DNA from: Dictyostelium discoideum
Taxonomy: Eukaryota
Direction of reading: 5' to 3'
NCBI GenBank assembly: GCA_000004695.1
Contig: CM000151.3
Span: forward strand, 4,576,001-4,640,000
Length of the DNA stretch: 64,000 nt
Made by a program: the position numbers and the translations under genes. Of this stretch, positions 19,899 to 64,000 are shown piece after piece; positions within the stretch are counted from its first letter, which is position 1; the number at the start of each line of letters is the position of its first letter. Under the pieces are notes generated by a model. It worked only from the letters and a program-made list of their open reading frames with translations. It made no database searches and was not told the DNA's origin.

Positions 19899-19934
<36 letters not shown>

Positions 19935-19965
19935 TTTACAACGAACACAAAAAAAAACACAAAAA
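19099..19965. promoter_or_regulatory. Putative bidirectional promoter region between rpl8 (minus) and the BolA-like gene (plus). Contains the palindrome tacataac-ctttacataaa-gttatgta at about 19243-19272.
   Basis: Head-to-head gene arrangement. The inverted repeat is directly visible. No experimental support. Confidence 0.35.
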
Positions 19966-20121
19966 ATGATTTCAAGATTAATTAAACAAACAACAAAAGT
20001 TAACCAAATTAGAACATTTTGTTCAATTACTAATGATCCAAAAGGAGATAAAATTAGAGATTTATTAAATACAGCTTTTAAAACCATCAACATTAAATGT
20101 TATAGATATGTCTGGTATGTA

Positions 20122-20161
<40 letters not shown>

Positions 20162-20610: not shown

Positions 20611-21975
20611 TTATTTACGACCTGGACGAGATGGTTTGGAGAAAGCTTTTTTCTCTTCAACCTTTGGTGGGTGAAGTTCGTTGATAATTGATTCTTCAGA
20701 GATTTCACTTGGTGAGTTAATTTCAAGTTTTAAGTCAATCTTTACATTATGACTAGTAACAAGTTGTTCAACATTTGCTTTGCTACTTGAGAATAACATT
20801 CTCTTACGAACTGGTGCACTCTTGGTACCATTTGAACCATCTGGGCATGAATAAATGTAAACTAAAATAATAATAATCATAATAATAGAGTGTTAGTGTA
20901 TATATATATATATATATTAAAATTAATAATAATCAATTATATATTAAAATAATAAAAACTACATACTAATTGAATCTAAATTTTCACCTTCATGTTGATG
21001 AGAATATCTGAAAAAGTGGAAACTTGGTTCAGTTGATGAAATTTTTGAAGAGATTGCTTCAATATCAATATTTGAAGATGAAGAGAAAATGATTTTTTCA
21101 TCATCAACATTGACTGATAATTCAATGTAATTGAATTTTTTATTTATGAAATTTGAAACAGCAGTGGATGCATCAGAATCAACTGGGAATGAAATACCAT
21201 GAACATGCATACCACTACCACCACCACCAACGAATAAACCTTGTTCTTTTTCATCATTTCTTTGTTGTTCTTCCATTGTTAATGGTGCTTCTGATTCTTG
21301 ATGAAGTTTATGTTGTTGATATCCTTTTTTTGAGAAATCATTCTATAAAAAAAAAAAAAAGATAAAAAAAAGAAATATTGTATTAGTAATCTTTTTTTAA
21401 TTAATTAATTAAAATAATAAATAATAAGACATACCATATTTGAAGAATAAATTTCATCAACGAAATGAGATGCACCAAGTTCTCTTTTTAAGTTACCTCT
21501 AGTTGCAGCGTATGTCATTTTCTCTCTAACTTTAGCATTATCTGGAACGAAAAACATAAAGATCCAATTGTAACCTGTTAATTCAATACTCTTATCATCT
21601 TTTTTGTAAAGGATATAACATGGTGAATCCTTTTGAAGAACAGAATGTGCTAATTCTAAATCTGTTTCAAAATCTGATTGAACATTTAATTTTTGATCAA
21701 CAACCAATTCATCTATATAATAATAATAATAATAAATAATAAATAATAAATAATAAATAATAAATAATAATATATTTTTTTTATATTTTTTATTTTATTA
21801 ATATTATAATTATAAGAGGGGTGTTAGTAGAAAATTAAAATTAAAATATATATAATTTATTTATTTACTTACCATTTTTAATGACAACTTTAATTAAACG
21901 AACATCTCCAGTATTGGCTGAACCAAAAGCTGAAATTAATTCTTGTGATGCTGGGATACCACTTGAGTGACTCAT
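20611..21975 (-). CDS. twfA: Twinfilin (two ADF-H domains). Exons 21975..21873, 21712..21435, 21342..20967, 20871..20611.
   Basis: MSHSSGIPASQELISAFGSANTGDVRLIKVVIKN.. / ..SPCYILYKKDDKSIELTGYNWIFMFFVPDNAKVREKMTYAATRGNLKRELG.. is ADF-H 1. ..STAVSNFINKKFNYIELSVNVDDEKIIFSSSSNIDIEAISSKISSTEPSFHFFRYSHQ.. / IYIYSCPDGSNGTKSAPVRKRMLFSSSKANVEQL is ADF-H 2. All introns are GTAAGT/GTATGT...AG with consistent phase. Confidence 0.8.
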
Positions 21976-31654: not shown

Positions 31655-34600
31655 TTAGCTTCTACTTTGTAATGAATGAATATTATTTTTAAACTTCATT
31701 TCCTTCTTTCTCATTACAAAATGATAGGTAACTGAGGATATTACTACTGCAGCAAATGCGACACTACCCACTACAATACCAGCAATTGCACCACCACTTA
31801 ATCCACTGGATTTTTGAGAACAAATTGAATTTGGTGATGAAGATGAACTTGATGAATGATCTAATAATACTGAGAAATCAGGATCTACTATAACTTCAGA
31901 TTTATACTGTGGTATTATAATACCAATATATGAAGATGAGAATGATTCAGAATTTGATTGAGTTTGATTATTTTCAATAACTCTATTATCGATTGGGGTA
32001 ATTAGTCCATCTGCAATACCTCTTTTTAAGAATCTTGCATACATTGAATGATCTCCAATTTGAATTTTTAAATAATCTTCGTTTGTATTATTTCCAAATT
32101 GTTGAGATGAACAAATATCGTCACTGCTAGATGATTCAAATGTTGCTGACATTAATAATTCTAATTTACTTAATCGATTTCTAAATGGATATGAATTGAT
32201 TGAAATTGTATATTTTGAAGTTGATGGGTTCATTTGTAAATTATTACCAGCGAATGATATATTTGTAGCCTTATCAAACCATTGAATAGTTACATTTGTT
32301 TGTGATATTGTAATGTCATCTCTTGTAATATTAGTTATATACAATGATGTATTATTAGTTAAATCACTGTAAATCCATTTTTCAAAGTAATAGGTATTGA
32401 TTACATTATATTCATAATCGAGTTCTCTTAAAGCTACTAATGATATTAAAGATCTAAATGTAATATCAAGATTCGATGAGGTGGTAGTTGTTCCGTTTGG
32501 TGTTGAAATTTCGGTTGATGGATCGGTTGTATTAATTGATGGTTGTGGTACAATAATAACTTTGGATGTACAGTCAATACCAACCCATGGTGTGAAACAA
32601 ACACAACCCGATGTACTAGTATCACAATAACCTTGATTTGAACCACCACATTCTGGTTTTCCTGGACATTGTGGTCTTTTAGTTGGTGTCGGTGTTGGTG
32701 TTGGTGTTGGTGTTTCAGATGAAGATTCAGATGGTGTTTGAGATGGTGTTTGAGATGGTGTTTCAGTTGGTGTTTCAGTTGGTGTTTCGGTTGGTGTTTG
32801 AGTTGGTGTTTCGGTTGGTGTTTGGGTTGGTGTTTCAGTTGGAGTTTGAGTTGGTGTTTCAGTTGGAGTTTGAGTTGGTGTTTCAGTTGGAGTTTGAGTT
32901 GGTGTTTGAGTTGGTGTTTGAGTTGGTGTTTGAGTTGGTGTTTCAGTTGGTGTTTCAGTTGGTGTTGGTGTTTGAGTTGGGGTTGGTGGATCTGGAATAA
33001 ATAATAATACTTTTTGATATGGATAAATAAAATATTCATTTGAAGATATTGATTTATCATTTTCTAATATAATACTAAAGTTACTACCTTGATCCATTTC
33101 AGAGATACCGCCTAATAAAATAGCAGCACCCCCAACAGTTTTTTTAACTTGTAATGGTTTAGTAGTTGATTTATAATTGAATGTTGCACCAGTAACTGAT
33201 TTAAATCCTTTACCTGTTAACCATAAATCACCACCTAATGTAGAAATTCTATCAGAACCTGTAATAACTGGAACATCGATTGTATATGTTGTATTTATTA
33301 AATATGGGAAACCTAATTGTTTAAAATCATTAGAGCTATAACCACTATAATATCCACCATTATTTACTAAACCATAAACTGATAATAAAATTCCAAATGG
33401 GTAACCATATGCTACTGGTAATGAAATTGAACATTGATATGATTTTGAATTTGAATTGATTATTGTTTCAGATGTAATTTGACATTGAATTGTATTGAAA
33501 TCAGTTGAAGTTAAATAAATTACTGGGTAACTATTATTTTTAACACCAGATGCTAAATTTTCAACCTCTAAATTAAATGAAACAACTCTTTCACTTAAAC
33601 CTACATCAACTACAGTTTTATCACTAGAAAATTTTTTAATTACAACTGGTGTTGGATCACTTACTTCATTTGGACAAGTAACTGATATTTTATTGATTGA
33701 TGGATCATTAAAATAGTACATAAATGGATTATAAAGAGAGTTTAAAATAAATTTATAATCACTAAATAATGAAAATGTTGAATTATTATTTTCAGTATCA
33801 AATAGTAATACATCAGAAATAATATAGTCTTGAGAAATACAAGGAGTTGATAAATTAATACCAACTGTATATACTTGTTCAAATACATCAGTTGTTGGAT
33901 ATAATGTAAAATTATAATTTGAACCATCAATTGCACCTTTAACTACAATATAACCACTTTTAAAACCATTAATTGGATCACTAATTGTTAATTTCCAACC
34001 AATTTCAGTATTAGTTTGAATTGTAACTGGTGATGAAGATGGATACTTTTGAATTCTTTTAAATATTGGACCCATTAAATCAGCATCTTTATTAAACAAT
34101 TTGAATATTAAATTAGTAATTAATTTTTTCAATAAAAATAAATAAATAAAAATTTTAACTTACTTTCTGAAATTACATTAAATGAAGCATTACTACCTAA
34201 TGCACTATTCAATACCCATTGTTTTCTATTAAAAAAGAGGGCATAAGACATTGGACCTTGTCTCGAATTTCTTGGCAAATAAAATTCAACTTGAAACATT
34301 TTAATTGTATCATTCCATTGTGCTGGCCAAGCTTTATCTAGTAATCCTTGAGGATAGATTGGATCATCATTCAAATATTCTTTTATCCATTGTTGATGAT
34401 GAACCAATAGAGATATTGGTGAATTGATATCTAAATTTGACATATTAAAATATAAAATATTACCAGCAACAACATTTGTAACATCCATTGTTTTATAAAA
34501 AATTGAAGCATTTTGAACATTATAAAAATTGAAACCTTTAAAAGCAATTAAAAAAAAGTTAGTTTATATGTAATAAAAAACAATAGTTCATTATAATATT

Positions 34601-37287: not shown

Positions 37288-40015
37288 TTATTTTACTTTT
37301 TCCAATTTATTTGTAATGGATCTATTAAATTTATTTTCTTGATTCCTTTTTACAAAATGAAAGGAAAGTGAGAATATTACTACTGCAGCAAATGTGACAC
37401 TACCTATTACAATACCAGCAATTTCACCACCACTTAATCCACTGGATTTTTTAGAACAAATTGAATTTGGTGATGAAGATGAACTTGATGAATGATCTAA
37501 TAATACTGAGAAATCAGGATCTACTATAACTTTAGATTTATACTGTGGTATTATAATACCAATATATGAAGATGAGAATGATTCAGAATTTGATTGAGTT
37601 TGATTATTTTCAATAACTCTATTATCGATTGGGGTAATTAGTCCATCTGCAATACCTCTTTTTAAGAATCTTGCATACATTGAATGATCTCCAATTTGAA
37701 TTTTTAAATAATCTTCGTTTGTATTATTTCCAAATTGTTGAGATGAACAAATATCGTCACTGCTAGATGATTCAAATGTTGCTGACATTAATAATTCTAA
37801 TTTACTTAATCGATTTCTAAATGGATATGAATTGATTGAAATTGTATATTTTGAAGTTGATGGGTTCATTTGTAAATTATTACCAGCGAATGATATATTT
37901 GTAGCCTTATCAAACCATTGAATAGTTACATTTGTTTGTGATATTGTAATGTCATCTCTTGTAATATTAGTTATATACATAGATGTATTATTAGTTAAAT
38001 CACTGTAAATCCATTTTTCAAAGTAATAGGTATTGATTACATTATATTCATAATCGAGTTCTCTTAAAGCTACTAATGATATTAAAGATCTAAATGTAAT
38101 ATCAAGATTCGATGAGGTAGTAGTTGTTCCGTTTGGTGTTGAAATTTCGGTTGATGGATCGGTTGTATTAATTGATGGTTGTGGTACAATAATAACTTTG
38201 GATGTACAGTCAATACCAACCCATGGTGTGAAACAAACACAACCCGATGTACTGGTATCACAATAACCTTGATTTGAACCACCACATTCTGGTTTTCCTG
38301 GGCATTGTGGTTTTTTAGTTGGTGTTTGAGTTGGAGTTTGAGTTGGTGTTTGAGATGGTGTTTCAGATGGTGTTTCAATGGGGGTTTCAGATGGTGTTTG
38401 AGTTGGTGTTTCCGTTGGTGTTTGAGATGGTGTTGGAATTGGAGTTGAAGGGTCTGGTGTTACAGTTGGTGTTGGAGTTGGTGATGGAGTTTCTGGTTCA
38501 CGAGTTGGTACATAATTCAATACTTTTTGATATGGATAAATAAAATATTCATTTGAAGATATTGATTTATCATTTTCTAAAATAATACTAAAGTAGGTAC
38601 CTGGATCCATTTCAGTGATACCGCCTAATAAAATAGCAGCACCTCCAATAATTTTGTTAACTTGTAATGGTTTAGTAGTTGATTTATAATTGAATGTTGC
38701 ACCAGTAACTGATTTAAATCCTTTACCTGTTAACCATAAATCACCACCAAATGTTGAAATTCTATCGGAACCTGTAATAACTGGAATATCGATTGTATAG
38801 GTTGTATTAATAAAATATTGGAAACCTAATTTATTAATATCATCAGAGCTATAACCACTGTAGTATCCACCATTATTTACTAAACCATAAACTGACAATA
38901 AAATTCCAAATGGGTAACCGAATGCTACTGGTAATGAAGCTGAACATTGATATGATTTTGATTTTGGTGTTATTATTGTTTCAGATGTAATTTGACATTG
39001 AATTGTATCGAAATCAGTTGCAGTTAAATAAATTACTGGGTAACTATTATTTTTTACACCAGATGCTAAATTTTCAACTTCTAAATAAAATGGAACGATT
39101 CTATAGCTTAAACCTACATCAACTGTTTTATTACCACAAACAAAATTTTTAATTACAACTGGTGTTGGATCATATACCTCATTTGGACAAGTAACTGATA
39201 TTTTATTGATTGATGGATCACCGAGATAATTCATAAATGGATTAAAAAGTGATAATCCTATGAATTTGTCATCATTAAATAATGTAAATGTTGAATTATT
39301 ATTTTCAGTATCAAATAGTAATACATCAGAAATAATATAGTCTTGAGAAATACAAGGAGTTGATAAATTAATACCAACTGTATATACTTGTTCGAATATA
39401 TTATTTGTTGGATTAATAGTAAAATTATAATTTGAACCATCAATTGCACCTTTAACTACAATATAACCACTTTTAAAACCATTAATTGGATCACTAATTG
39501 TTAATTTCCAACCGATCTCAGTATTAGTTTGAGTTATAACTGGTGATGATGATGATGGATACTTTTCAATATTTTTAAATATTGGACCTAGCAAATCCAT
39601 TTTTTCAGAAATTACATTAAATTGAGCATCACTACCAAATGCATTATTTAAAACAAATACATTTCTTTTAAAAAAGAGTGCATACGGTAAATTTCCACTT
39701 TTAGAATTTCTTGGCAAATAAAACTCTGCTTGAAACATTCTAATTGTTTCATTCCATTTTGCTGGCCAAACTTTATGATACAATTCAGATGGAATTGTTT
39801 GGTCTTGGATGGTTTGGAATTTTTGTGTTGATGGTTGGTGGTGAATAAATAAACTCAATGGTGAATCAATATCTATATTTGTCAAATTAAAATAAAGAAT
39901 ATTTCCTGCAACTGAATTTGTTACATTCATTGTTTTAAAAAGTATTGATGCATTTCTAATATCATACATATTGAAACCTATAATTAAAATTATTGTTTTA
40001 ATAATTTAGTTATTT

Positions 40016-48380: not shown

Positions 48381-48783
48381 AATTTTGGCATTTTTGCTAA
48401 AAAAAAATAAAAACAACTTCAATCATTTTTTTCTCGAATTTTTTTTTTAATCGTTATTAAAGTTTTTTTTTTATACGCTTGTACCTAATTCGAATTGTTT
48501 ATGTTCCACCTTTTTGTTTTTTTTTTTATTTTTTTTTTATTTTTTTTTTTTGAACCATGGATGACACAAAATGTATAAAATTTTTTTTTTTGTTCACCAA
48601 TAGATCATGGCATCAAAATATTTTTTCTTTAAAAAAAATATTTTATAAAAAAAACACAACACATTTAAATCACATGCGGCTTTCCCTTGGATGAAAGATT
48701 CAAACTCAAAATTTTTTTTTTTTATTTTATATTTAGGTAAAATGAATGCACGCTAGGAGGTGGCACAGCCAAAAATTTTTTTT

Positions 48784-48815
<32 letters not shown>

Positions 48816-49297
48816 TATTTTTTTTTTTTAGCGATTTTAAGATGGTGATCAAAATTAAAAAAAAAAAAAAGAAAAAAAAAAAAAAAAAGGAAAAAAAAAA
48901 AAAAAAAAATTATGATAATATATTAAAAAAAAAAAAAAATTTTGGCTGTTTGAGTGTGTTTTTTTTTATTTTTCTTTCCTTTTTATTTTTATTTATTCAT
49001 TATTTTTTTTTCTTTATTTTATTATAATTAATTTGTTTATTTTTTTTCCCTTTTTTAATTTTTTTTTTTTTAAAATAAAAAAGACAATTTTTTTTTTTCC
49101 TACCAAGAATCATTACCATAGTAAAAATAAACATAATAATAATAATAATTTGATTTGGTTAATTTATTTATTTATTTTTATAATTTTAATACTGTTTTTT
49201 ATTTTATTTTATTTTATTTTTATTTTTTTTTTTTTTCTCTTCTCTTTTTTAATTTTTTTTTTTTTTTTTTTAACTCAAATAATAAATAAAAAAAAAA

Positions 49298-51388
49298 ATG
49301 ATAGCAAGTTATTTTGAAGTAGTCGCAATTAAAGATCATAAACCAATTCATCAATCCCAATTATTATTTAGAAAGGGAGAAAAGATATTAGTTGTAGAGA
49401 CAGCACCAACAGGATGGTGGAAAGGTGAAATTGGTAATAGAAAAGGGTTGTTCCCAGAATCTTACGTTTCACAATCACCAACACCATCAATGATAACATC
49501 ACCAGTTCCAACCTCACCATTGGTTCATACAACAATCACTTCAACACCAAATGTTGCATCACCACAATCTTTAAATATTGAAAATAATAATATTACACTA
49601 TTACCACCTCCACCTCCAGTTATAATTAGTAATGAAGAATCAACATCATCAGCAGCATCATATTCATCTTCATTATCTTCATCCTCTCAACTACAACAAC
49701 AGCCACAAGCACCACAATTAGTTGTACCACCAATTAAACAATTAAATAAAGTTGGATCATCAGTAACATTTAGTGATTCACCATCAGTTATAATTTCATC
49801 TTCAACAGCTACAACAACTAATAATGGTACATTATCACCAACAACTTCTTCACCACACACCGATAGTCCAATTAATAAATCACCACGTTTTAATATTTCA
49901 CCAACTGATATAGCAAATTCAGCACCAAGAATGACAAGCCACACAAGAAAGAATTCAGGTCCTGCAAAATCAATCTCCTCTCAAAATGATAGTAGTGATG
50001 ATAGTGATACTTCTCCAACATTGAAAGGTGTTAATGGTGGTGTTAATGTTGGTGGTGGTATTGGTGGTGAAGGTATTTCATCCACAAGTAAACCAAATAA
50101 ACAATATAGTAGTGCAACTGTAAACATTAAAGATTTAAAACAACATATGGAAAAGCACCAACAAAATTCAACAATGGGTAGAAATGTTAATTCACGTACT
50201 CCATTACATTCAACTGGTAGAGGTATCAGCGTTGGTGATGTAAATACAGAGGTTCCCTATTATATTTGTCGTGCCATTGAAGCACATTCTCAGCAAGGTT
50301 TTGACGAACTAGAATTTCAAGTTGGTGACTTAATTGTAATCTATAATTCAAAAACTGTTGATTCAGATTGGTGGGTTGGTCGTTTTAAAACAACTTATGG
50401 TTTATTACCAAAGAAATGTGTTGAAATTATTAGAGATATTTCTCCAACTTCTGCAACTGCATTATCACCTTCAAAATCATCACCAACTACATCAACAACA
50501 ACAACAACAACGACAACAACTACTAATACCGCTACAACAGCATCTCCACCAATTAAATCAACAATAGCCACACCACCACCACCATTACAAAAACCTATAA
50601 CACCAGCACCACAAACAACTTTTACTCCAGTACCACCACAACCAGCACCATATAAGTTTGATATAAACTCAAATTATAAAAAAGGTATTGCTTTAACAAA
50701 TTATAATAGCCAATTTGCAACTTATCTTTCATTTAAAAAAGGTGATATAATGGTATTAGAATCAAAAGAGGGTGATTTTTGGAAAGCACGTATTGGTGGT
50801 CAAGTTGGTTTAGTTTCTCCAAATTATATTAGAGAACATGATGTACAAGTACATCCACCAACTACAACCTTTACTGCTTCAGTTTATGATAACTCAAATA
50901 ATTCAAATAATTCAAATAGTAATAGTAATAATATAAGTAATACTACAAATAGTAATAATGATAATATTAATACCAATATTAATAATTTAGCACTACCAGT
51001 AAAACCATCACCACCAATATCACCAAGAACAAACAACAACAACAACAATAATAATAGTATTAATAATAATGTAAATAGAAACGAAAATGAAAATACCAAT
51101 ATTAATCATGAACAACAACAACAATCAAAAACAGTAAATATATCTCAAATTAAAAATGATGCTAATAAAAGTAGTGAAATTGATGATGATGGTATAGCTA
51201 GAAAAATTAGGGATTCATTTACTCATTTCCAAACCAGGGAGGAATTACTTGATGCAATTCAAAATCTAGCAATTAAATTTGTAAAACAAACATCAGCTTT
51301 GAAAAAAGAGTTACAGCAAGAACAACAAGAAAAAGCAAATCTTGAGATGGAATTACAAGAAATCAAACAAAGATATAATATAAATTAA
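49298..51388 (+). CDS. Triple-SH3-domain protein with a C-terminal coiled coil, single exon.
   Basis: ATG at 49298. SH3 1: YFEVVAIKDHKPIHQSQLLFRKGEKILVVETAPTGWWKGEIGNRKGLFPESYV. SH3 2: YYICRAIEAHSQQGFDELEFQVGDLIVIYNSKTVDSDWWVGRFKTTYGLLPKKCVEII. SH3 3: IALTNYNSQFATYLSFKKGDIMVLESKEGDFWKARIGGQVGLVSPNYI. C-terminal ...LKKELQQEQQEKANLEMELQEIKQRYNIN*. Confidence 0.75.
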   Translation: MIASYFEVVAIKDHKPIHQSQLLFRKGEKILVVETAPTGWWKGEIGNRKGLFPESYVSQSPTPSMITSPVPTSPLVHTTITSTPNVASPQSLNIENNNITLLPPPPPVIISNEESTSSAASYSSSLSSSSQLQQQPQAPQLVVPPIKQLNKVGSSVTFSDSPSVIISSSTATTTNNGTLSPTTSSPHTDSPINKSPRFNISPTDIANSAPRMTSHTRKNSGPAKSISSQNDSSDDSDTSPTLKGVNGGVNVGGGIGGEGISSTSKPNKQYSSATVNIKDLKQHMEKHQQNSTMGRNVNSRTPLHSTGRGISVGDVNTEVPYYICRAIEAHSQQGFDELEFQVGDLIVIYNSKTVDSDWWVGRFKTTYGLLPKKCVEIIRDISPTSATALSPSKSSPTTSTTTTTTTTTTNTATTASPPIKSTIATPPPPLQKPITPAPQTTFTPVPPQPAPYKFDINSNYKKGIALTNYNSQFATYLSFKKGDIMVLESKEGDFWKARIGGQVGLVSPNYIREHDVQVHPPTTTFTASVYDNSNNSNNSNSNSNNISNTTNSNNDNINTNINNLALPVKPSPPISPRTNNNNNNNNSINNNVNRNENENTNINHEQQQQSKTVNISQIKNDANKSSEIDDDGIARKIRDSFTHFQTREELLDAIQNLAIKFVKQTSALKKELQQEQQEKANLEMELQEIKQRYNIN

Positions 51389-51712
51389 TTTCAATGTTAA
51401 AGAAAAAAAAAAAAAAAAAAAAACAATTTATTTATTAAACTCTCAGCTAAATCATATTTTTATAATAAAGAATAATAAACATGTAAATTTATATAAAGTA
51501 CCTTTATTTTAATAATTTTTTTTTAATATTTATTTAATTTAATTTGGAATTATGATCCAACCATTTTTATTTCAACTACCTTCCATCATTAACTGTAAAT
51601 CCTTGAATATCTTCAACACAAACATATCGAATAAAAAAAAAAAAAAAAAAAATTTATCAAGCACAAAAATAAAAAAATGTAAAACAAATAATTTTTTCTA
51701 TTTTTATTTTTA

Positions 51713-55312
<3,600 letters not shown>

Positions 55313-55361
55313 TATTTTATTACGTCTTTTGTTATGAAGCTTTGGTGAAGTGTTATGTTTT

Positions 55362-55407
<46 letters not shown>

Positions 55408-55679
55408 CAAATTTCTTGGAATTATGGGCAAATTATCAATTAATTTAATTTTTTTAATTTAAATTTTTTAATTTGATTATTTAAATCCAGATTCATTTAC
55501 AACTCATTTATTTTCATCATTATAGATTTTAAAAGATTAATTTGTAAATATTTAAAAAAAGTAAAAATTAAAATAAAAATAAAAAAAAAAAAATTATTAT
55601 TGTTATTACTTAGATTTTCATTTGTTCTTATTTTTAATTTTTTTAAAATAAACTTTTTATATTTTTTTTTTTTTAAAAA

Positions 55680-57744
55680 TTATTTAGTTGGCAATAGTTT
55701 TACATGTTTGATAAAGAAATGTGTGGGAATAGAGTTTATAAAATTTAAACTATCATTATAGATACAAATAAATTCAAATGAAGGTGGCCATATTAAATCT
55801 GGTAATTCATCACAATTATAACCTGTAAAATAAAATGATTTCAAATTAGGTGGTAAGGCATCTCTATCGATAGTTGAATTGAAAAAATCTGAAATTCGTA
55901 ATAAAGTGAGTGATGATGGTAATACATCTCTTTGAATTGGTTGTTTGTAACTTGGTAATTTTAATACCCCTATGGATGATGGTAGATCTCCAACATTTAA
56001 GGGTTGATTAAAATCATAGATTTTTAATTTTTTAAGATTATTTGGTAAGAGACTATCGTTTAATTCGAATTCATCTGAAACTGTTAAAACTAGTTTTGAA
56101 ATAGTAGGTGGGAATTTTACATCTGTTAAATCTATTTGACTTACATTGAGTTTCAACGATGTTAAATTTTTGAAAAAATCTAAAGAGTGTAAATGTGGGT
56201 TCCGAGTAGTGAAATTCATTATTTTTAGTGTTTGAATTGTTTTGGGTAATATTTGAATATCAGAGAATGCGTTCATTGATAAATTTGTAATTGTTGGTGG
56301 AAAGAGAGCTGCATTATCTTTGTTTCTACCAAGATGTAAAGTTTTAATTGAGATTGGTAATGAGTTTGGTTCAAGTTTATGATTGCCCGACTTGAATATC
56401 AATGATGTAACATTGTGTGGAATCATTCCTTTTTCAATGGTCTGATTAAAAAAAGAATCAAACTCTAATGAAGTTGTACCACCTGGTATAGATGTCGAGT
56501 CTAATTTATTAGTACCTCTTTTAGAATCAAAAGAATAATCAAGAGTTGTTACTGATTTTGGTATTGATCCATATAGAATTATTCCTTGATAATTTGGATC
56601 TAATATCAATGAGGTGAGTGATGGTGGTAATTCATCTCTATGAATTGAATGTTGAAATGATTTTCCAAAAGTTAAAGATTTTAATGTTCTTGGTAGCAAT
56701 GGTATACCATTTGTGTCACTTAATGATTGATTAAACTCATCACTAAAATCAATCGATGTTAGACTATTACCAATCATATTACGAGTTAATTGTTGATCAA
56801 AATCAATCAATGTAATGGACTTACATGTATCTGGTATCCAATGGTCTACTAGTATAATATCTGAACAATCCATCTCTATATTTTCCGCAATTTGTGGCAT
56901 TGGATACCAATTTGAGTAACGTTGGTTTTCATATCCATTTAAATCAAATAATCTGATGTTATTAAAATAATTTCTATATTTATATGTTGAAAAATTATTT
57001 ATCCCTATATCAAAGCTATTATTATGATTATTATATATTCTAAGATGAAATAAAATTTGATCCCTAATAACCATATTTCCCCAAATTTTTTTAAATAATA
57101 TATAATTATTATCAATTGTTTGATTTTTTAGTTGATTTGTTCTTATATTATTATTATTAATATCAGGTTGTGATTTTAAAATTAATTGATTTAAATTATT
57201 ATTATTAATGGTAATATGATGATTTAAATTATTTTTAATGATTATAAGTATTGAACAATCGAATGAAATTCTTTTATTTCTATTGTTAATTGTGTCATTA
57301 TTATTATTATCTGTAATTGAATGAGTATATATAATTTCATTATTAGAATTATTGGTTGTAAATGTGTTTTTTAAATTTTGAATATGATTATTTAGTGTTT
57401 GAAATTGTTGATCATTTAATCCTTTTAAATCATTTAAATGCTTTTTTTCATCTTCTTCTTGTCTATATAAATATGTTTTTATAATTAGTATAATAATAAT
57501 AAAAATAATAAAATAAAAAATATAAAATATCAAAGTGTGTTAACGTATACAATTTTTTTTCTTTTTTATTTTGAAGGTTTTCATTATTGTTTTTATAATT
57601 ATTGATACTATTACAATAATCTTGAAGTTGATTGAATGTAATATTTAAACTATTAATTGATAATATTAATAAACAATTTAAAAGCTCTTCATTGTTTTTA
57701 TTATTATAATTATTAATTAAATAAGAGTAAATTATATTATCCAT
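55680..57744 (-). CDS. FNIP-repeat protein, copy 1. Exons 57744..57551, 57472..55680.
   Basis: Repeated FNQ...IP units (FNQSLSDTNGIPLLPRTLKSLTFGKSFQHSIHRDELPPSLTSL; FNQTIEKGMIPHNVTSLIF; FNQPLNVGDLPSSIGVLKL...). Exon 1 is MDNIIYSYLINNYNNKNNEELLNCLLILSINSLNITFNQLQDYCNSINNYKNN...KKL, followed by a GTATAC donor. Confidence 0.75.
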
Positions 57745-58474
57745 TTGACACACAAAAAAAAAAAAAAAAAAGGAAATGTGTTGGTGTTTTTTATTTTAAA
57801 ACAATAAATTTAAATTTTTTTAATTTTTTTTTTTAAATAAATTTTTAAAATTTTTTTGATCCTCTTTTTTTTATCACCCAAGTGCACAGTAAAAAAAAAA
57901 AAACAATAAAAAAATTTCAAAATAAAAAAAAAATAAAAAAAAATAAAAATAAAAAAAAAAAAATATTAATAAATTAAAACACAATATTTGACCCATAACA
58001 TTAAATTTTCAAAAGATAATATTAGAAACAATGCTTTAAAAAATTTCAAAGTTAGATCAAAAAGCAAGGATTGTTTTTGCCATCGATAAGTTACTAGCAA
58101 TTAAGCGATGTGATATTTTCGCCAAAACATACCGAGATCCAGAGTGCTATAAAAGAATCACTGTTTTTTTTCAATTTAAATAGTGAGCCAAACGGTACCA
58201 ACATATCGAATTTTAATTTTTAAAAAAAAAAAAAAAAAAATTTCAAATACTATTAATTCCCATAGTAATTATGATTAAATTAATATAGGATGAAAAAGCC
58301 TTCCATGTCAATTTCAAAGGAAGATGCAAAAAAAAAATAAAAAATAAGGTGATCAATCAATCTTGCCTTTTTAAATAAATAAGAAACCCTTTACAATTTT
58401 TAAATTACTTTTAACTAAAATATCTTTTTATTTTTATTATTTATTATCATTATTTTTTATTTTTTTTTTAATTT

Positions 58475-58745
58475 TTATAAAAGATCTTTTCTTGTTACAA
58501 TACCAACAACTTCATTCTTTTTATTTACAACAGGTAAATGTTTGTGAACCATTTGCTTGATTTTTTGAACGACATGGTGTAAAAGCTGCACAACAATATA
58601 AAATGGTCGATGTGATTAATTAAAATGAAATCTTCTAAAACAAATAAATAAATCTTTTTATTTGCAAAGAATTTACTTCTCAATTGAGACGTGCATTTAA
58701 ATTGACACCGAATAAACCACCTGCAACTGTTGCATTAAAATATTT
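58475..58745 (-). pseudogene. Fragments of a ClC chloride-channel gene (FNAPxGG motif region plus the C-terminal CBS2 end).
   Basis: 58685-58740: FNATVAGGLFGVNLNARLN* (ClC signature FNAPIGGVLFSLEE, degenerate). 58475-58640: ...HKHLPVVNKKNEVVGIVTRKDLL* (ClC C-terminal ..RHLPVVD.ENRLVGIITRKDL). The two segments are far apart in an intact ClC. Confidence 0.45.
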
Positions 58746-58766
58746 ATTTAAAAGTTCGTTTTATTA

Positions 58767-59411
58767 GTCTTGAAAATTTGATGAGGTTATTATAGTTTTT
58801 TCAAAGGTTTCAAGGGTTTTATCTTTAGATGTTGTTCTAAGTATTGTTTCAATACTCTTACTGAATTTTTTATTTCCCATTAGACGAAAATTTCTGAATT
58901 TTGAATAAACCGATGTATCGATATAGTTGAGCTCTGGTGTAAAGATGGATCTTTCAATAACAAATTGTTTTACCCATTCTCCAAGATGTTAATTGTCTTT
59001 CCAATGGAAGGTTTTAAATGGCCAATGTAAATGTAAAGAATATTTATCGTATTGATAGGAGAAGAGCAATAATGGTCCAATGCTATCGATTTCATCAGAG
59101 ACCTGTGGATGTGTTTTCTTTAGATGGGTTTTCACTTCGTCGATTATAATTCTATCGATAAGATTGTTTTTATAAAGTTGTTTGTTTCTTTTATTTTCTT
59201 CTGCTTTCTCGGGTGGTAACTTAAAATCAATATCTAAATACAAATTACAATTTTCAAATTGTGGAATCAATTCATAATAATGACGAAGATTCAATGGCGT
59301 ATTCATTATACATTTGAAGAGTTTTTCAATACTTGGAGATACTAAAAAAGTACGTTGACCTGTATCTCCAAATTCATATAAAAATATTTCAATAGAGCTG
59401 GCACTATTCAT
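58767..59411 (-). pseudogene. PrimPol-like AEP-family primase-polymerase with an in-frame TAA. The downstream UL52-type zinc-finger part is absent.
   Basis: QRTFLVSPSIEKLFKCIMNTPLNLRHYYELIPQFENCNLYLDIDFKLPP (human PrimPol: RIYLVTTYAEFWFYY...LHCYEVIPENAVCKLYFDLEFNKP; AEP motif I). YSLHLHWPFKTFHWKDN (motif II sxH; human FSRHLIFQLHDVAFKDN). A TAA stop follows at about 58989. The same frame then continues HLGEWVKQFVIERSIFTPELNYIDTSVYSKFRNFRLMGNKKFSK (motif III; human FVDLGVYTRNRNFRLYKSSKIGK). Confidence 0.6.
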
Positions 59412-59538
59412 ATAATTAAATGATATTGTTTACTTTGATACATCGGTTTTGTATGGAGTTGTATTTTTACAAACTGCTAATGATTTGAAAATCATAAACA
59501 ATCAAACCTATTCGAATTGACTAACGTTTTACTATCAA

Positions 59539-59676
59539 ATGATTTCAAATATTAATTTCGAAAATGCTGAAGTAACCATATTAAAAGTCATACCACCCAT
59601 AGATAAGTGTATGGAACAAATTAACCAAAGAGGTAGAGCCTTTGAAGTCAGTAGTTTATCCATGTTTCCAAATTAA
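59539..59676 (+). pseudogene. Possible deoxynucleoside-kinase (dCK/dGK family) C-terminal fragment.
   Basis: MISNINFENAEVTILKVIPPIDKCMEQINQRGRAFEVSSLSMFPN* compared with the dNK segment IYL.A.PE.CL.RI..RGR.EE..I.L.YL. Short and weak. No upstream P-loop. Confidence 0.3.
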
Positions 59677-60012
59677 CCGATAAAATTCGATCTCATTGTG
59701 TTAGTCAAGTTTTATCAAGACTTGAAAAACCAAAAAAATGCTGTATCGATACAAAAGCAATGATGACCTGTTCAATGACATTTTCTTTAATGAAAATCCA
59801 AACTCAATTCCCACACCATCCAATATTCCAACTCAATCTCTTCAAAGTTCACACTTAAATCTCAGTTTTTATTACCCATCGAATCAAGAGCAATATTTTA
59901 ATATTCAAGATAAATTGAATTAATAAAACTAAATTCTAAATAATACTATAAAAAAAAAAAAAAAAAAAAAAAAATAAAAATATATTTAAATTAAATAAAA
60001 AAAGAAAAAAAA

Positions 60013-60120
60013 ATGTCTACATTTGCCGATCTTCGTTCTGTTTACGGTGCCTTACTAGGTGGTATGGGTAGTATTGGTGCTTACTTTATTTATTCCAAAC
60101 CAATAGATGGGTTTCATTAA
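60013..60120 (+). CDS. Small ORF (35 aa) with a glycine-zipper TM-like segment. Uncertain.
   Basis: ATG...MSTFADLRSVYGALLGGMGSIGAYFIYSKPIDGFH*. Locally higher GC than the surroundings. No homology recognised. Confidence 0.2.
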   Translation: MSTFADLRSVYGALLGGMGSIGAYFIYSKPIDGFH

Positions 60121-60185
60121 AAGAATATTTTAGAAAAGATTAAGGTTTTTATTTTAGAATTAATTGATATAAATTATTATTATTA

Positions 60186-60742
60186 TTAATATTTTTATTA
60201 TTATTAATGGTGATATGATGATTTAAATTATTTTTAATGATTATAAGTATTGAACAATCGAATGCAATTCTTTTATTTCTATTGTCAATTGTGTCATTAT
60301 TGTTATTATCTGTAATTGAATGAGTGTATATAGTTTCATCATTAGAATTATTGGTTATGAATGTATTTTTTAAATTTTGAATATGATTATTTAGTGTTTG
60401 AAATTGTTGATCATTTAATCCTTTTAAATCATTTAAATGGGTTTCTTCCTCTTCTTCTTGTCTATATAAATATGTTTTTATAAATTGGTATAATAATTAT
60501 AAAAATAATAATAAAAATATAAAATAATTAAAGTGCGTTGATGCATACAATTTGTTTTCTTTTTTTTTTTGAAGGTTTTGATAATTGTTTTTATAATTAT
60601 TGATACTATTACAATAATCTTGTACTTGGTTGAATGTAATATTTAAATTATTAATTGATAATATTAATAAACAATTTAAAAGCTCTTCATTATTTTTATT
60701 ATTATAATTATTAATTAAATAAAAGTAAATTATACTATCCAT
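60186..60742 (-). pseudogene. Truncated FNIP-repeat gene copy (exon 1 plus about 290 nt of exon 2).
   Basis: Exon 1 MDSIIYFYLINNYNNKNNEELLNCLLILSINNLNITFNQVQDYCNSINNYKNNYQNLQKKKENKL. Intron GTATGC...tatag. Exon 2 RQEEEEETHLNDLKGLNDQQFQTLNNHIQNLKNTFITNNSNDETIY... Similarity to copies 1 and 3 ends abruptly at about 60186. Confidence 0.6.
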
Positions 60743-61235
60743 TTGATAGCCAAATTAATTTTATCAAATAAAAAAGAAAAAAAAATGGTACTTTTTTTTT
60801 AATTTTGGTATTTAACTTTATTTTTTTATTATCAACATTAAATACTTTTTCTTAAAATAATTAATTATCAAAAAAAATGCGCCCATTCCCTTTTTTTAAA
60901 TTTTTTTTATTAACCTAGATATTTTTATTTTGATAAATTTTATGATAAAAAAAAAAACAAAAAAAAAAAAAAATCTAAAAAAATCACTGGTTGGTAAAAG
61001 CTTTTTTTTTAAAAAAAAATAGTTTTTCGTGATTTTGGCAAAATTTCATTTTTATATGAACATGTAAAAGATCGGCCAACATTAAAAAAAAAAAATATAT
61101 TTTTTTTTTTTTTTTAAATCAGACTGTTTTTTAGAGAGTTTTATTTAAAAACCACAATATACCACTTGGGATCACAAAAAATAAAAAAAAAATAAAAAAA
61201 ATTAAAACATTTGCATTAAAAAATTTATTTAAAAA

Positions 61236-63295
61236 TTAATAATTTAATTTCCCACGTTTTAATAGTTTTGTATGTTTGATAAAGAAATCTGTGGGAATAG
61301 AGTTTATAAAATTTAAACTATCATTGTAGATATAAACAAATTCGAATGAAGGTGGCCATATTAAATCTGGTAATTCATCACAATTATAACCTGTAAAATA
61401 AAATGATTTCAAATTAGGTGGTAAGGCATCTCTATCGATAGTTGAATCGAAAAAATCAGAAATTCGTAATAAAGTGAGTGATGATGGTAATACATCTTTT
61501 TGAATTGGTTGTTTGTAACTTGGTAATTTTAATACCCCTATAGATGATGGTAGATCTCCAACATTTAAGGGTTGATTAAAACCATAGATTTTTAATTTTT
61601 TAAGATTATTTGGTAAGAGACTATCGTTTAATTCGAATTCATCTGAAACTGTTAAAACTAGTTTTGAAATAGTAGGCGGGAATTTTACATCTGTTAAATC
61701 TATTTGACTTACATTGAGTTTCAACGAAGTTAAATTTTTGAAAAAATATAAAGAGTGTAAATGTGGGTGGGAACGAGTAGTGAAATCCATTATTTTTAGT
61801 GTTTGAATTGTTTTGGGCAATAGAAACACTTCAAGGCATTCATGTATTGATAAATTTGTAATTGTTGGTGGTAATTGAGCTGAATAGTCTTTGTTTCTAC
61901 CAAGATGTAAAGTTTTAATTGAGATTGGTAATGAATCTGGTTCAAGTTTATGATTGCCCGAACCGAATTTCAATGATGTAACATTGTTTGAAATCACTCC
62001 TTTTTCAATGGTCTGATTGAAAAAATAATCAAACTCTAAAGATGTTGTGCCACCTGGTACCGATGTTGAGTCAAATTTACATGTACCATCTTTAGAATCA
62101 AAATAACAATGAAGAGTTGTTACTGACTTTGGTATTGATCCATATAGAATTACTCCTTGATATTTTGGATCCAATAATAATGATGTAAGTGATGGTGGTA
62201 TTTCGTCTCTATGAATTGAATGTTGAAATAGTTTTCCAAAAGTTAAAGATTTTAATGTTCTTGGTAACCATGGTATACCATTTGTATCACTTAAAGATTG
62301 ATTAAATTCATTACCAAAATCAATAGATGTTAGACTATTACCAATGATATTACGGGTTAATTGTTGATCAAAATCTATAAATGTAATGGATTTACATGTA
62401 TCTGGTATCCAGTGTTCTCCAAGTATAATATCTGAACATCTCATCTCTATATTTTCAACAATTTGTGGCATTGGATAACAATTTGAGTTACGTTGGTTTT
62501 TATAGCCATCAGAATCCAATAACTTGACATTATTAAAATAATTTCTATATTTATATGTTGAAATGTTATTTCTCCTTATATCAAAGCTATGATTATGATT
62601 ATTATATATTCTAAGATGAAATAAAATTTGATCCCTAATAATCATATTTCCCCAAAACTTTTTAAATAATATATAATTATTATCAATTGTTTGATTTATT
62701 TGTTGATTTGTTTTAATTTTATTATTAATATCAGATTGTGATTTTAAAATTAATTGATTTATATTATTATTATTAGTGAGATGATTTAAATTATTTTTAA
62801 TGATTATAAGTATTGAACAATCGAATGAAATTCTTTTATTTCTATTGTTAATTGTGTCATTATTATTATTATCTGTAATTGAATGAGTATATATAATTTC
62901 ATTATTAGAATTATTGGTTGTTAATATATTTTTTAAATTTTGAATTTGATTATTTAGTGTTTGAAATTGTTTGTCATTTAATCCTTTTAAATCATTTAAA
63001 TGCTTTTTTTCCTCTTCTTGTCTAAAAATGTTTATAAATTAGTATAATAATATAATAATAAAATATAAAATATAAAATAATCAAAGTGTGTTAATGCATA
63101 CAATTTTTTTATTTTTTTTATTTGAAGGTTTTGATTATTGTTTTTGTAATTATTGATACTATTACAATAATCTTGAAGTTCATTGAATGTAATATTTAAA
63201 TTATTAATTGATAATATTAATAAACAATTTAAAAACTCTTCATTATTTCTATTGTTATAATTATTAATTAAATAAGAGTAAATTATATTATCCAT
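61236..63295 (-). CDS. FNIP-repeat protein, copy 3. Exons 63295..63102, 63021..61236.
   Basis: Exon 1 MDNIIYSYLINNYNNRNNEEFLNCLLILSINNLNITFNELQDYCNSINNYKNNNQNLQIKKIKKL, then a GTATGC donor and ttttag acceptor. Exon 2 is open from 63021 to the stop at 61236 (RQEEEKKHLNDLKGLNDKQFQTLNNQIQNLKNILTTNNSNNEIIY...FNQSLSDTNGIPWLPRTLKSLTFGKLFQHSIHRDEIPPSLTSL...). Confidence 0.75.
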
Positions 63296-63515
63296 TTGAT
63301 ATTCATAAAAAAAAAATAATAAATAATAAAATGGAATTAAAAAAGTAAGATTGACTTGTACAGAAATAGTTTTTCCTAAGGGATAACCAAAAAAAGGCAC
63401 TTTTTTTTGGCCCTCAAGGTGAAAAATAAAATTGGAACTTCCTGTGGGTAATTGAGTTAATTATGAAAAACTTAGTGATTTAGAATAAACCAAATTATTA
63501 AAAAATTTTCATTCC

Positions 63516-63555
<40 letters not shown>

Positions 63556-63676
63556 ATGAATGCATGGCTTAAACTTTTAAATAATATTAAACAATATTTG
63601 CTAAAATCTATTGTAAAATTAAATTTAAAATGTAATTATTAGTATTTAAAAAAAAATAAAAAAAAAAAATGAACTT

Positions 63677-63712
<36 letters not shown>

Positions 63713-64000
63713 AACCCCGAAAAAAAAAAAAAAATAAACTCAAAAAAAAAATAAACTCAAAAAAAAAATCACAAATAAAAAACAAACCCTTTTTCTATTT
63801 GAGCCCTGGTATTTCTGATTTTTTTTTTTTTTGGAAATTATTCTTTTTATTCTATTTATTTTTTTTTTAAATTTTTTTAATAACCTTGTTTATTCCCCAA
63901 TAACTTAATCTTTTTCAAAAACTTTTTTTTTTTTACAATAACTCAATTTTTCAAGGAATGGTTCACCAGCAAACTTTTTTTTCACTTTGTTTTATTAAAA

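Follow-up and report, generated by a model that had tools for sequence, protein, structure and literature searches.

Positions ~58758-60160 of the window, as we call the whole 64,000-nt stretch of Dictyostelium discoideum DNA analysed here, quite likely represent a single decayed remnant of a multi-copy gene unit that came from a virus-like element and that has no present function in this copy. The unit pairs a deoxynucleoside kinase (dNK) gene with a divergent PrimPol gene, which is followed by a YqaJ exonuclease gene, and this replication gene cluster of social amoebae is probably virus-derived.

Make-up of the locus

The original prediction described a graveyard of gene pieces between FNIP genes. 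The stop, deletions and truncations in the PrimPol, dNK and FNIP pieces bear out its claim that they are dead. Its count of four unrelated remnants is not sustained, as every related locus fetched has PrimPol and dNK side by side in divergent orientation, as members of one conserved unit. Most of the graveyard is thus a single insertion with internal deletions; the rest is an FNIP stub and ~950 bp of orphan sequence. The 1.4-kb remnant of the dNK/PrimPol/YqaJ unit occupies 58758-~60150 (or up to ~60160). It has undergone a GAA>TAA change, two internal deletions and a truncation in which YqaJ and the zinc finger were lost. The reported rise in GC content over 2.4 kb is also present: GC is 0.25-0.27 across 58001-60000, which is coding-like for the D. 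discoideum genome, against 0.15-0.18 on both flanks. The features, in order, are:

57754..58477, no strand: FNIP-A upstream region and ~700 bp of other sequence, with a GC-richer patch at 58020-58200
58478..58615, minus: orphan half CBS domain, ending in HLPVVNKKNEVVGIVTRKDLL, then a stop and AT-rich DNA
58683..58760, minus: stretch earlier read as the ClC 'FNAPxGG' region (NELLNKYFNATVAGGLFGVNLNARLN), directly beyond the PrimPol breakpoint
58758..59423, minus: PrimPol-type AEP pseudogene remnant, aa ~23-243 of the ~390-aa family consensus, motifs I, II and III intact
58989..58991, minus: in-frame TAA after ...HWKDN (family consensus GAA, Glu; alignment of seven copies)
59416..59923, plus: dNK pseudogene remnant, aa 94-264 of 264, divergent to PrimPol
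59420..59422, no strand: junction of internal deletion 1, ~600 bp missing relative to other copies
60013..60096, plus: 5' part of a small 61-aa ORF, which follows dNK in the unit; here truncated and with a 5-aa deletion
60094..60161, no strand: ~70 bp of the unit's far-left end, corresponding to L001 7549-7481 (85.5%, E=1e-15)
~60140..60742, minus: FNIP gene stub (copy B'), with exon 1, intron and ~330 nt of exon 2

The sequence at 57754..58477 gives no match in Rfam and tRNA searches and only weak, sub-threshold noise in Pfam. It resembles neither the rest of the window nor any fetched locus except L003, which is a second assembly of the same locus. Together with the half CBS domain, the ~950 bp beside the remnant is orphan sequence.

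The PrimPol frame and its stop codon

As had been claimed, one frame holds the three AEP motifs: motif I (DxD/E; LYLDIDF, 59223-59243), motif II (SxH; YSLHLHW, 59022-59042) and motif III (D..R.FR; IDTSVYSKFRNFRLMG, 58875-58922), all on the minus strand and all aligned with the motifs of the relatives. In Pfam the fragment matches AEP_C962R only, above its cutoff (E=3e-5). It is 94% identical to L001 10068-10736 and 96% identical to L006 10038-10698, and a tblastn search with the family consensus covers 221 aa at 95% identity with one stop.

That stop, the single in-frame TAA, lies where it had been placed, and reading is open beyond it up to ...SSNFQD and two further stops. In the seven-copy alignment, the window and L003 read AAT TAA CAT, and L001, L002, L004, L006 and L007 read AAT GAA CAT. 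L003 is an independent assembly, 99.82% identical to the window over 15 kb, so the TAA is not a sequencing error; its presence in both assemblies and the GAA in five paralogues settle the original caveat of an error or strain allele. The copy breaks off on its downstream side at ~58758, near aa 243, and has neither start codon, zinc finger nor C-terminus, the start codon and promoter being missing because of the 0.6-kb deletion. The description of a well-preserved pseudogene without the UL52-type zinc finger is therefore accurate. With its TAA, its lack of start and promoter and its 3' truncation, the PrimPol-like frame is not an intact, expressible gene.

The dNK remnant and the internal deletions

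Two frameshifts spread the dNK piece over three frames, one stop interrupts it, and the N-terminus with the P-loop is gone. In tblastn the intact dNK of L002 aligns to it in three HSPs, one per frame, that are 77-79% identical (combined E=1e-65). Against Pfam dNK (PF01712, cutoff 27 bits), the window piece alone stays below the cutoff (E=0.016, 15 bits), and the L002 protein, which has the P-loop (GPIGAGKT) and LID (QRGR) motifs, exceeds it (5.4e-11, 43 bits). The identity to aa 94-264 of the L002 dNK makes the window piece a member of the family by descent, as a pseudogene fragment; the dNK tail, at first only called possible, is longer than had been thought.

Internal deletion 1 took the first 22 aa of PrimPol, the first 93 aa of dNK and, between them, the promoter region that both genes share. 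Window 59422 to 58770 corresponds to L006 10038 to 10698, window 59420 to 60079 corresponds to L006 9441 to 8755, and the same gap appears against L001, L002, L004, L005 and L007. Beyond dNK, the small ORF (MSTFADLRSV.GALLGG.GSIG...) is found at the equivalent position in L001, L002, L004, L005, L006 and L007, and its 61 aa are intact in L002, L004 and L007; two hydrophobic helices are predicted by eye. The far-left piece aligns with L002, L004 and L001, its end point recurs (L004 4673, L006 6522, L001 7487), and it adjoins the FNIP stub, overlapping its start. Its position points to internal deletion 2, of ~3.5 kb (L002 ~5205-8685). Neither the small ORF (60013-60096) nor the ~70-bp piece (60094-60161) appeared in the earlier account of the locus.

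A multi-copy unit in Dictyostelium

The order dNK (-), PrimPol (+) and YqaJ exonuclease (+), with dNK divergent, is conserved at at least nine Dictyostelium loci, and is seen in D. dimigraforme (L002), D. cf. discoideum (L001, L004, L005, L007, L008) and D. discoideum (L006). Pfam recognises the unit's dNK (5e-11) and YqaJ (1e-34). Both blocks in the window are 79-96% identical to these units and share their divergent orientation. The closest relatives are confined to Dictyostelium: nine gene models, 71-100% identical over the aligned part, several of them within one genome.

PrimPol is disabled in each of the nine copies examined, which come from three Dictyostelium species or lineages; even the best-preserved copy has a 34-bp deletion. 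The intact donor gene that had been expected elsewhere is not among these nine loci. The copies nevertheless bear a signature of past purifying selection. Their pairwise pN/pS is 0.24-0.49 in the true frame and 0.5-4.8 in two control frames (binomial p from 0.056 down to 7e-7, below 0.01 in six of seven pairs), values drawn from few substitutions in an AT-rich genome. Most differences between the copies fall at synonymous sites, so their divergence took place while they still worked. Terminal repeats and target-site duplications were looked for and none was identified. Several deposited gene models of these pseudogenes splice around the stops and drop the catalytic motifs.

Family and clade of the PrimPol

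Judged by its sequence, the family counts as PrimPol (AEP superfamily, PrimPol/UL52 branch), with the window copy only a fragment of it. A profile built from the Dictyostelium copies alone has human PrimPol (5L2X/7JK1) as its sole significant match among solved structures (E=3.4e-11), and a wider profile reaches it at 2e-47. A profile search of 1.84 billion proteins returned 351 relatives, some named 'DNA-directed primase/polymerase'. The family has AEP motifs I-III in common with eukaryotic PrimPol (human PRIMPOL/CCDC111; PDB 5L2X, 7JK1), and its full-length members also have the UL52-like zinc finger. This finger, C-x6-H-x19-C-x4-C, occurs in the longer members P0002, P0004, P0006 and P0009, its Cys/His columns are invariant in the alignment, and the spacing is presumably that of human C419/H426/C446/C451. 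The CHC2 finger was not found in the window copy, which ends at ~aa 243.

The element PrimPol differs from eukaryotic PrimPol in being much shorter (~390 aa), in its constant linkage to dNK and YqaJ and in its multiple copies. It also forms a clade separate from canonical PrimPol, one in which all examined Dictyostelium copies are disabled. The Dictyostelium consensus, P0011 and P0013 are reciprocal best matches, whereas P0050, the canonical PrimPol of dictyostelids, reaches 155-182 bits against canonical eukaryote PrimPols and <82 bits against the element clade. The window PrimPol was also considered as a copy of the host's canonical gene, and these scores reject that origin in favour of the element-borne clade. 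Herpesvirus UL52 and NCLDV D5-type primases belong to the same NCLDV-herpes-PrimPol AEP branch, and AEP_C962R is the ASFV primase. Poxvirus D5, in contrast, gives E~0.004-0.05 with the wide profile and no match with the Dictyostelium-only profile, and there is no helicase domain.

The FNIP stub and the half CBS domain

The FNIP stub lacks the 3' ~1.5 kb that bears the FNIP repeats. Its identity to the first ~600 bp of the FNIP genes on either side (57196-57797 and 62710-63301, their 5' ends) is 88-90%. FNIP repeats (PF05725) were not found in the stub, whose 168-aa model in L003 has no Pfam match, and the neighbours do match PF05725; family membership is therefore assigned from the DNA identity to the full copies. 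The proposal of a truncated FNIP copy is confirmed.

Two pieces had been attributed to a ClC channel. The C-terminal one stands as half a CBS domain (Pfam E=4e-8) covering profile positions 18-52 of 57, with its ClC origin unproven: its best solved structures are archaeal CBS proteins (5e-6), and the C-termini of ClC-6 and ClC-7 follow at E=0.005-0.04. It has no match in the rest of the window, the other Dictyostelium loci, the Acytostelium contig L009 or the Logan contig L010, and no close homologue among 5.8 billion proteins. The other piece, 'FNAPxGG' (58710-58739 proper), found no Pfam family at E<=5, no solved structure at E<=10 in a set with many ClC entries, and nothing in the 5.8-billion-protein search. 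A Voltage_CLC membrane segment at 58683-58760 is accordingly unsupported.

Links to DNA viruses

A relative of the unit lies in the Acytostelium contig L009 (DF837621.1). On this 25.8-kb scaffold the module (dNK divergent to PrimPol, followed by YqaJ) sits ~0.7 kb from a Pox_A32 packaging ATPase of FtsK/HerA type (7.9e-10, 39.1 bits, cutoff 22.8) and is surrounded by many same-strand ORFans. L009 may be part of the host genome and not of a viral one. The module recurs in L010, a gene-dense 12.6-kb contig with ~12 back-to-back ORFs that has six genes in common with L009. A 487-aa ORF of L010 weakly resembles Pox_VLTF3, below the cutoff of 25 bits (E=5.7e-4, 20.1 bits); the VLTF3-type late transcription factor is said to be diagnostic of Nucleocytoviricota (PMC11253617). 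Three further ORFans of L009 and L010 have homologues beside the module in L002 and L004 (E=7e-27, 3e-74, 5e-22). The candidate capsid is a conserved 416-aa ORFan (L009 3316-4566) with a fragment homologue in L004 (E=7e-27) and with no Pfam or solved-structure match.

Neither the window nor the 20-kb Dictyostelium loci yielded a capsid, packaging ATPase or integrase; the A32 gene was seen in the Acytostelium contig only. In pattern-based scans of IMG/VR viral contigs, neither the PrimPol nor the ATPase nor a lineage-specific ORFan had any relatives; the scan with YqaJ gave only weak 24-27% matches, presumed phage, and the metagenomic relatives of YqaJ at ~30% are phages. Recombinases of the YqaJ type usually belong to phages or viruses (Pfam name; PMC3493329).

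Endogenous Nucleocytoviricota-like and Polinton-like elements of protists (for example the integrated PLVs and giant-virus fragments of Acanthamoeba; PMC11702301) are likewise multi-copy, fragmented and pseudogenised. Like the unit, they form blocks among host genes and transposons, and the Acytostelium relative adds the linkage to an A32-type ATPase. The unit differs from them in carrying PrimPol, YqaJ and dNK rather than pPolB, helicase-primase or integrase, and its capsid is only a candidate. The literature searched holds no description of such elements in Dictyostelium.

Members of the Mriyaviricetes (Yaravirus, Pleurochrysis endemic viruses) have small genomes with A32 ATPase, VLTF3, RuvC, a PDDEXK/YqaJ-like nuclease, HUH endonuclease and AEP primase domains, and no DNA polymerase B (PMC11253617). 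The Acytostelium contig likewise has the A32 ATPase, a putative HUH ORF and a RuvC-like ORF recognised by eye. The putative HUH gene is a small ORF with by-eye HUH and Y-x2-K motifs, for which Pfam Gemini_AL1 gives only 0.047. The Yaravirus preprint lists an Acytostelium protein as best match of gene 28, which by our reading, from the offset between two papers' gene numbering, is the HUH gene. Mriyavirus AEPs differ in being fused to helicases and are not PrimPol-type with a UL52 zinc finger. The mriyavirus link is a lead, set by gene content and published descriptions, with VLTF3 below cutoff and MCP, RuvC and HUH as candidates.

Origin of the remnant

The core of the unit, a divergent dNK, a compact PrimPol (AEP and zinc finger) and a YqaJ-type exonuclease, most likely derives from the replication, recombination and nucleotide-supply module of a DNA virus-like element with Nucleocytoviricota- or Polinton-like kin. 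Such an element would have come into dictyostelid genomes more than once, or stayed active for some time after entry. One copy would have landed in or beside the FNIP tandem array, an insertion that may have caused the FNIP truncation. Later rearrangements would have cost FNIP copy B its 3' 1.5 kb and the unit everything from the PrimPol C-terminus onwards, YqaJ included, as well as ~0.6 kb over both gene starts and ~3.5 kb of the left arm. The GAA>TAA substitution would have come afterwards. As no functional protein can be expressed from the remnant, it would have no present function.

A purely cellular history, in which dNK, PrimPol and YqaJ form a lineage-specific host cluster that reached repeat-rich regions through segmental duplication and is now disappearing, with no virus involved, appears unlikely. 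Because the PrimPol is of the eukaryotic family, a cellular cluster stays in contention, and the selection signature among the copies, the Dictyostelium loci without virion genes and the lack of IMG/VR relatives all agree with it. Against it stand the distinct canonical P0050 in dictyostelids, the packaging ATPase and ORFans beside the module in Acytostelium, the compact L010 contig, the usual phage or viral home of YqaJ (PMC3493329) and the disabling of every examined PrimPol copy in three species or lineages.

Independent capture of PrimPol, ClC, dNK and FNIP fragments from intact donors, by repair or segmental duplication at a fragile locus, is less probable still. In its favour, the FNIP stub and the orphan CBS piece do differ in origin and are distinct fragments, and the breakpoints cluster inside 2.4 kb; yet PrimPol and dNK came together, with adjacency and orientation constant in all related loci, the ClC channel piece fails every search, and no intact PrimPol donor was found among the nine loci. 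That the PrimPol is functional, its TAA being a sequencing error, a strain allele or bypassed by editing, readthrough or an intron, is scarcely credible. The frame is open on either side of the TAA, the catalytic motifs are intact, and an automatic gene model from another assembly (P0003) splices around the stop. This model, however, loses motif II, the two assemblies agree on the TAA, and the copy lacks aa 1-22, the promoter region, the zinc finger and the C-terminus.

Implications

The remnant of a probably virus-derived unit described here is dead DNA, and its PrimPol-like frame should be annotated neither as a gene nor as a decayed host PrimPol. Annotation pipelines should also beware of gene models that rescue pseudogenes by splicing out stops together with catalytic motifs. 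D. discoideum is a major model organism. To our knowledge, no virus has been isolated from dictyostelids, and we know of none that infects D. discoideum; the remnant would be a trace of past DNA-virus-like elements in Dictyostelium. The elements of D. dimigraforme and Acytostelium are far better preserved than the window copy, with intact dNK and YqaJ and the A32 ATPase. More tentatively, at less than an even chance, social amoebae may carry endogenous copies of an undescribed lineage of small viruses related to Nucleocytoviricota, possibly mriyavirus-like, whose replication module is a stand-alone PrimPol with YqaJ and dNK and of which the window fragment is a fossil. If so, the genomes would document that DNA viruses infect dictyostelids. 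The stand-alone PrimPol is a candidate replicative enzyme of such elements, and a unit that was selected before it decayed, with relatives beside a packaging ATPase, offers a handle on which DNA viruses or virus-like elements infected social amoebae.

A decayed element copy within an FNIP gene array

The window DNA is extremely AT-rich Dictyostelium sequence. Over positions 48761-64000 it shares 99.82% identity with a contig from another D. discoideum assembly (GCA_054883475.1; L003) that covers the same locus. At 58-60 kb the GC content is 0.25-0.27 against 0.15-0.18 in the flanks; this rise, present in the original prediction, is coding-like. The core of the region is very probably what remains, after internal deletions, truncation and a nonsense mutation, of a multi-copy unit with genes for a deoxynucleoside kinase (dNK), PrimPol and YqaJ. 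It sits among FNIP-repeat genes arrayed in tandem on the minus strand, borders a truncated FNIP copy and serves no function today. The L003 gene models matching FNIP copies A and C encode 658 and 659 aa and match PF05725. The anatomy of the remnant was read against the ~7-kb unit of the D. dimigraforme locus L002 (~5130-11930).

Features of the remnant and its flanks
55680-57753, minus: FNIP copy A, FNIP-repeat gene
57754-58757: orphan left part, with the FNIP-A upstream region, a GC-richer patch, half a CBS domain and an 'FNAT' stretch
~58758: PrimPol truncation at ~aa 243, removing the zinc finger, YqaJ and everything downstream
58758-59423: PrimPol block, 84-97% identical to related loci
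59420-59422: first internal deletion, ~0.6 kb lost (PrimPol aa 1-22, shared promoter region, dNK aa 1-93)
59420-60079: dNK block, 79-93% identical to related loci
60013-60096, plus: start of a 61-aa ORF downstream of dNK
60094-60161: far-left unit end (~70 bp), matching 7549-7481 of the D. cf. discoideum locus L001 (E=1e-15), joined directly to the 61-aa ORF
~60140-60742: FNIP stub, sharing 88-90% identity with copies A and C over their first ~600 bp, then ending
61236-~63300, minus: FNIP copy C, FNIP-repeat gene

The minus-strand PrimPol-like frame retains all three motifs of the primase superfamily (AEP) domain, matches Pfam AEP_C962R above threshold (3e-5) and carries the predicted premature stop as a single in-frame TAA (58989-58991), beyond which it stays open up to ..SSNFQD and two stops. 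The earlier caution that this stop might be a sequencing error can be set aside, as the TAA is real and common to the window and L003 assemblies. In an alignment of seven copies both read AAT-TAA-CAT, while the five paralogues read AAT-GAA-CAT. The deposited model for this locus (P0003) escapes the TAA solely by splicing out motif II. Since the window copy has lost both ends of PrimPol, it is dead whatever the stop codon, and the label of pseudogene was correct; the truncation at ~aa 243 takes away the zinc finger, whose absence had also been remarked on.

The suspected dNK tail was confirmed by tblastn with an intact relative, whose residues 94-264 align on the plus strand, split between three frames and interrupted by one stop (combined E=1e-65). 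The adjoining 61-aa ORF, with two hydrophobic stretches, is intact in L002 (8566-8751, minus) and in two D. cf. discoideum loci, L004 (~7940-8126, minus) and L007, and conserves the pattern MSTFADLRSVSGALLGG.GSIGVAA.GAYFIYTSEIGSVDFYMGVGFAAFGCLLVSDHYSK; the L002 gene table calls no gene over it. Its fusion to the far-left unit end in the window indicates that another ~3.5 kb was lost in a second internal deletion. The left end point of the unit is the same in L004 and in L006, a second D. discoideum locus, and in the window it abuts or overlaps the FNIP stub. As predicted, this stub is a truncated FNIP copy, its similarity to copies A and C stopping after ~600 bp.

The proposed pieces of a ClC channel fared less well. 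What had been taken for a C-terminal CBS end does match Pfam CBS (4e-8), but over profile positions 18-52 only, which makes it half a domain, and a generic one: its best solved-structure matches are archaeal CBS proteins, with ClC-6/7 C-termini at E=0.005-0.04. Bridging a suspected frameshift by joining frames did not lengthen the match, and the ClC/CBS fragments, joined into one protein query, drew just one match, which was not significant (E=4.8). The 'FNAT'/'FNAPxGG' piece matched nothing in Pfam, protein or solved-structure searches. The CBS half may conceivably derive from a ClC gene. The orphan left part (57754-58757) matches only L003 when compared with the rest of the window and all fetched loci, and could be host DNA, an unsampled portion of the element or what is left of an old gene with a CBS domain.

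Elsewhere in the window, near-identical coding stretches (IGWKLTISDPINGFKSGYIVVKGAIDGSNYNF...) at 33962-34003 and 39475-39516 (minus strand, ~5.5 kb apart) point to a further pair of tandemly duplicated genes. No RNA family or tRNA emerged when the entire window was scanned with Rfam and for tRNAs.

A single multi-copy unit

The original prediction treated the fragments as four unrelated captures. A protein search with the PrimPol frame returned only Dictyostelium proteins, comprising nine gene models that are 71-100% identical over the aligned part, several of them within one genome and none with a Pfam annotation. At L002, a divergent 264-aa dNK (Pfam 5e-11) precedes PrimPol and a YqaJ exonuclease (Pfam 1e-34) follows it. 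The divergent dNK-PrimPol pair is kept in L001, L004 and L005 (one D. cf. discoideum contig), in L007 and L008 (another assembly) and in L006. YqaJ sequence is still found in L001, L004 and L006 and is absent from L005, L007 and L008. The window blocks match these loci in the same divergent orientation. PrimPol and dNK therefore arrived together in one piece, and the idea of four independent captures is wrong.

No intact donor for ClC, dNK or PrimPol exists within the window. Nor do the loci examined contain a live PrimPol: each of the nine copies is disrupted by frameshifts, stops, deletions or insertions. The PrimPol of L006 has its own TGG>TGA change, and the best copy, in L002, has a 34-bp frameshifting deletion; intact dNK and YqaJ occur in L002 only. 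In the true frame, pN/pS between copies is 0.24-0.49, with binomial p for synonymous excess from 0.056 to 7e-7 (<0.01 in six of seven copy pairs), whereas two control frames give 0.5-4.8 and are never significant. As the differences lie mainly at synonymous sites, the copies diverged for the most part while functional, and the PrimPols were once working genes. A single insertion followed by neutral duplication is at odds with this synonymous excess; the pattern is consistent either with repeated insertion from an active population of elements or with functional paralogues that persisted for a long time.

Several automatic gene models obscure this decay. P0002, P0003 and P0004 (in L001, L003 and L002) contain invented introns that drop stops or frameshifts and, with them, catalytic motif I or II. 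In the Acytostelium model, PrimPol and YqaJ are merged as a single protein of 650 aa. The intron-'rescued' models and the fusion are annotation artefacts.

In L002, low-complexity AT repeats overwhelmed the search for terminal repeats, which gave no convincing termini. Direct repeats ~17.4-18.3 kb apart bracket the L002 copy (1575-1874 and 19906-20205, 98%; 3470-3747 and 20871-21148, 91%) and could reflect a tandem duplication or show how long the element really is. The L004 PrimPol pseudogene is broken at 9585-10027 by a ~440-bp repeat, which recurs at L001 17871-18309 and 18339-18793 and at L005 10790-11215, in inverted pairs beside reverse-transcriptase/integrase genes in the last two loci; it looks like a solo LTR or retrotransposon terminal repeat inserted into the element. 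Abutting the unit in both L001 and L004, in one genome, is an inverted 4.1-kb segment (L001 11948-16078, L004 4622-464; 98.4%) that encodes a 370-aa and a 614-667-aa protein, and L007 has a called DDE_Tnp_4 gene at its edge. The segment is possibly a Harbinger/PIF-like DNA transposon with recent activity, either targeting these regions or moving along with them. Paralogous ORFs also flank the module (L002 3527-5092, 7026-8426 and 16796-17173; L004 6445-7775), with a signal-peptide-like N-terminus, Gly-rich or repeat tails and, by eye, a GIY-YIG-like motif (PGIY..(x)..YIGKS..R); Pfam returned no nuclease match for them, and they may be genes of the host or of the element.

Relationships of the PrimPol family

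A profile of the Dictyostelium copies retrieved 351 relatives among 1.84 billion representatives, many matching across the AEP domain and zinc finger and some named DNA-directed primase/polymerase. Against solved structures, human PrimPol was the sole significant match (3.4e-11). Longer family members align with invariant Cys/His columns in the arrangement C-x6-H-x19-C-x4-C. P0050, a canonical dictyostelid PrimPol from Tieghemostelium, scores 155-182 bits against canonical eukaryote PrimPols, while the best partners of the Dictyostelium family, reciprocally, are P0011 and P0013, encoded on a gene-dense contig (L010) and an Acytostelium contig (L009). By these sequence affinities, the Dictyostelium family is a separate, element-borne clade.

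Two other top profile matches, P0012 and P0014, were rejected as element members, being ordinary cellular PrimPols with housekeeping neighbours. Neither has dNK or YqaJ nearby, so the three-gene linkage is specific to the clade of Dictyostelium, L009 and L010. A 312-kb metagenome contig (L017) and L015 carry, among housekeeping genes of small-genome eukaryotes, compact cellular PrimPols (375-416 aa) that match Herpes_UL52 in Pfam; short PrimPols are therefore not restricted to mobile elements.

A possible viral source

No description of such elements in Dictyostelium was found in the literature searched. In IMG/VR, no relatives were detected with the PrimPol profile, with a profile of a lineage-specific ORFan or with the Acytostelium ATPase, and YqaJ gave weak 24-27% matches only, presumed phage. 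A metagenome scan with YqaJ returned 76 loci at ~30% identity, none sharing another gene with the element; of two sampled loci, one carries phage genes, among them a T4-type portal and a DnaG primase, while no Pfam match was obtained for the second. These metagenome matches are uninformative on the element's lineage.

On the 25.8-kb Acytostelium subglobosum scaffold (L009; DF837621.1), a minus-strand dNK is followed by plus-strand PrimPol (P0013) and YqaJ, and ~0.7 kb beyond lies a Pox_A32 packaging ATPase (7.9e-10, 39 bits, cutoff 22.8) surrounded by a run of same-strand ORFans. A32 ATPases are a hallmark of NCLDV, Polinton and PLV-type viruses. The 12.6-kb contig L010, from a public sequencing run, has the same divergent dNK and PrimPol (P0011) followed by YqaJ. 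It also encodes a GRF zinc-ribbon protein and carries an ORF of 487 aa whose Pox_VLTF3 match (5.7e-4) falls below threshold; VLTF3 is regarded as diagnostic of Nucleocytoviricota (PMC11253617). Mriyaviruses combine A32, VLTF3, RuvC, HUH, PDDEXK nuclease and AEP domains (PMC11253617), and the best match of gene 28 in the Yaravirus preprint is an Acytostelium hypothetical protein. A mriyavirus connection is a lead only, with MCP, HUH and RuvC as candidates; the RuvC-like and HUH-like ORFs of L009 were recognized by eye only, gained no backing from Pfam or solved-structure searches and are given no weight here.

Six genes are common to L009 and L010. For a further three ORFans of these contigs, homologues lie next to the module in L002 and L004 (E=7e-27, 3e-74 and 5e-22). 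The Dictyostelium loci hence hold more of the element than its three-gene core, and we lean towards a viral origin for the dNK-PrimPol-YqaJ unit.
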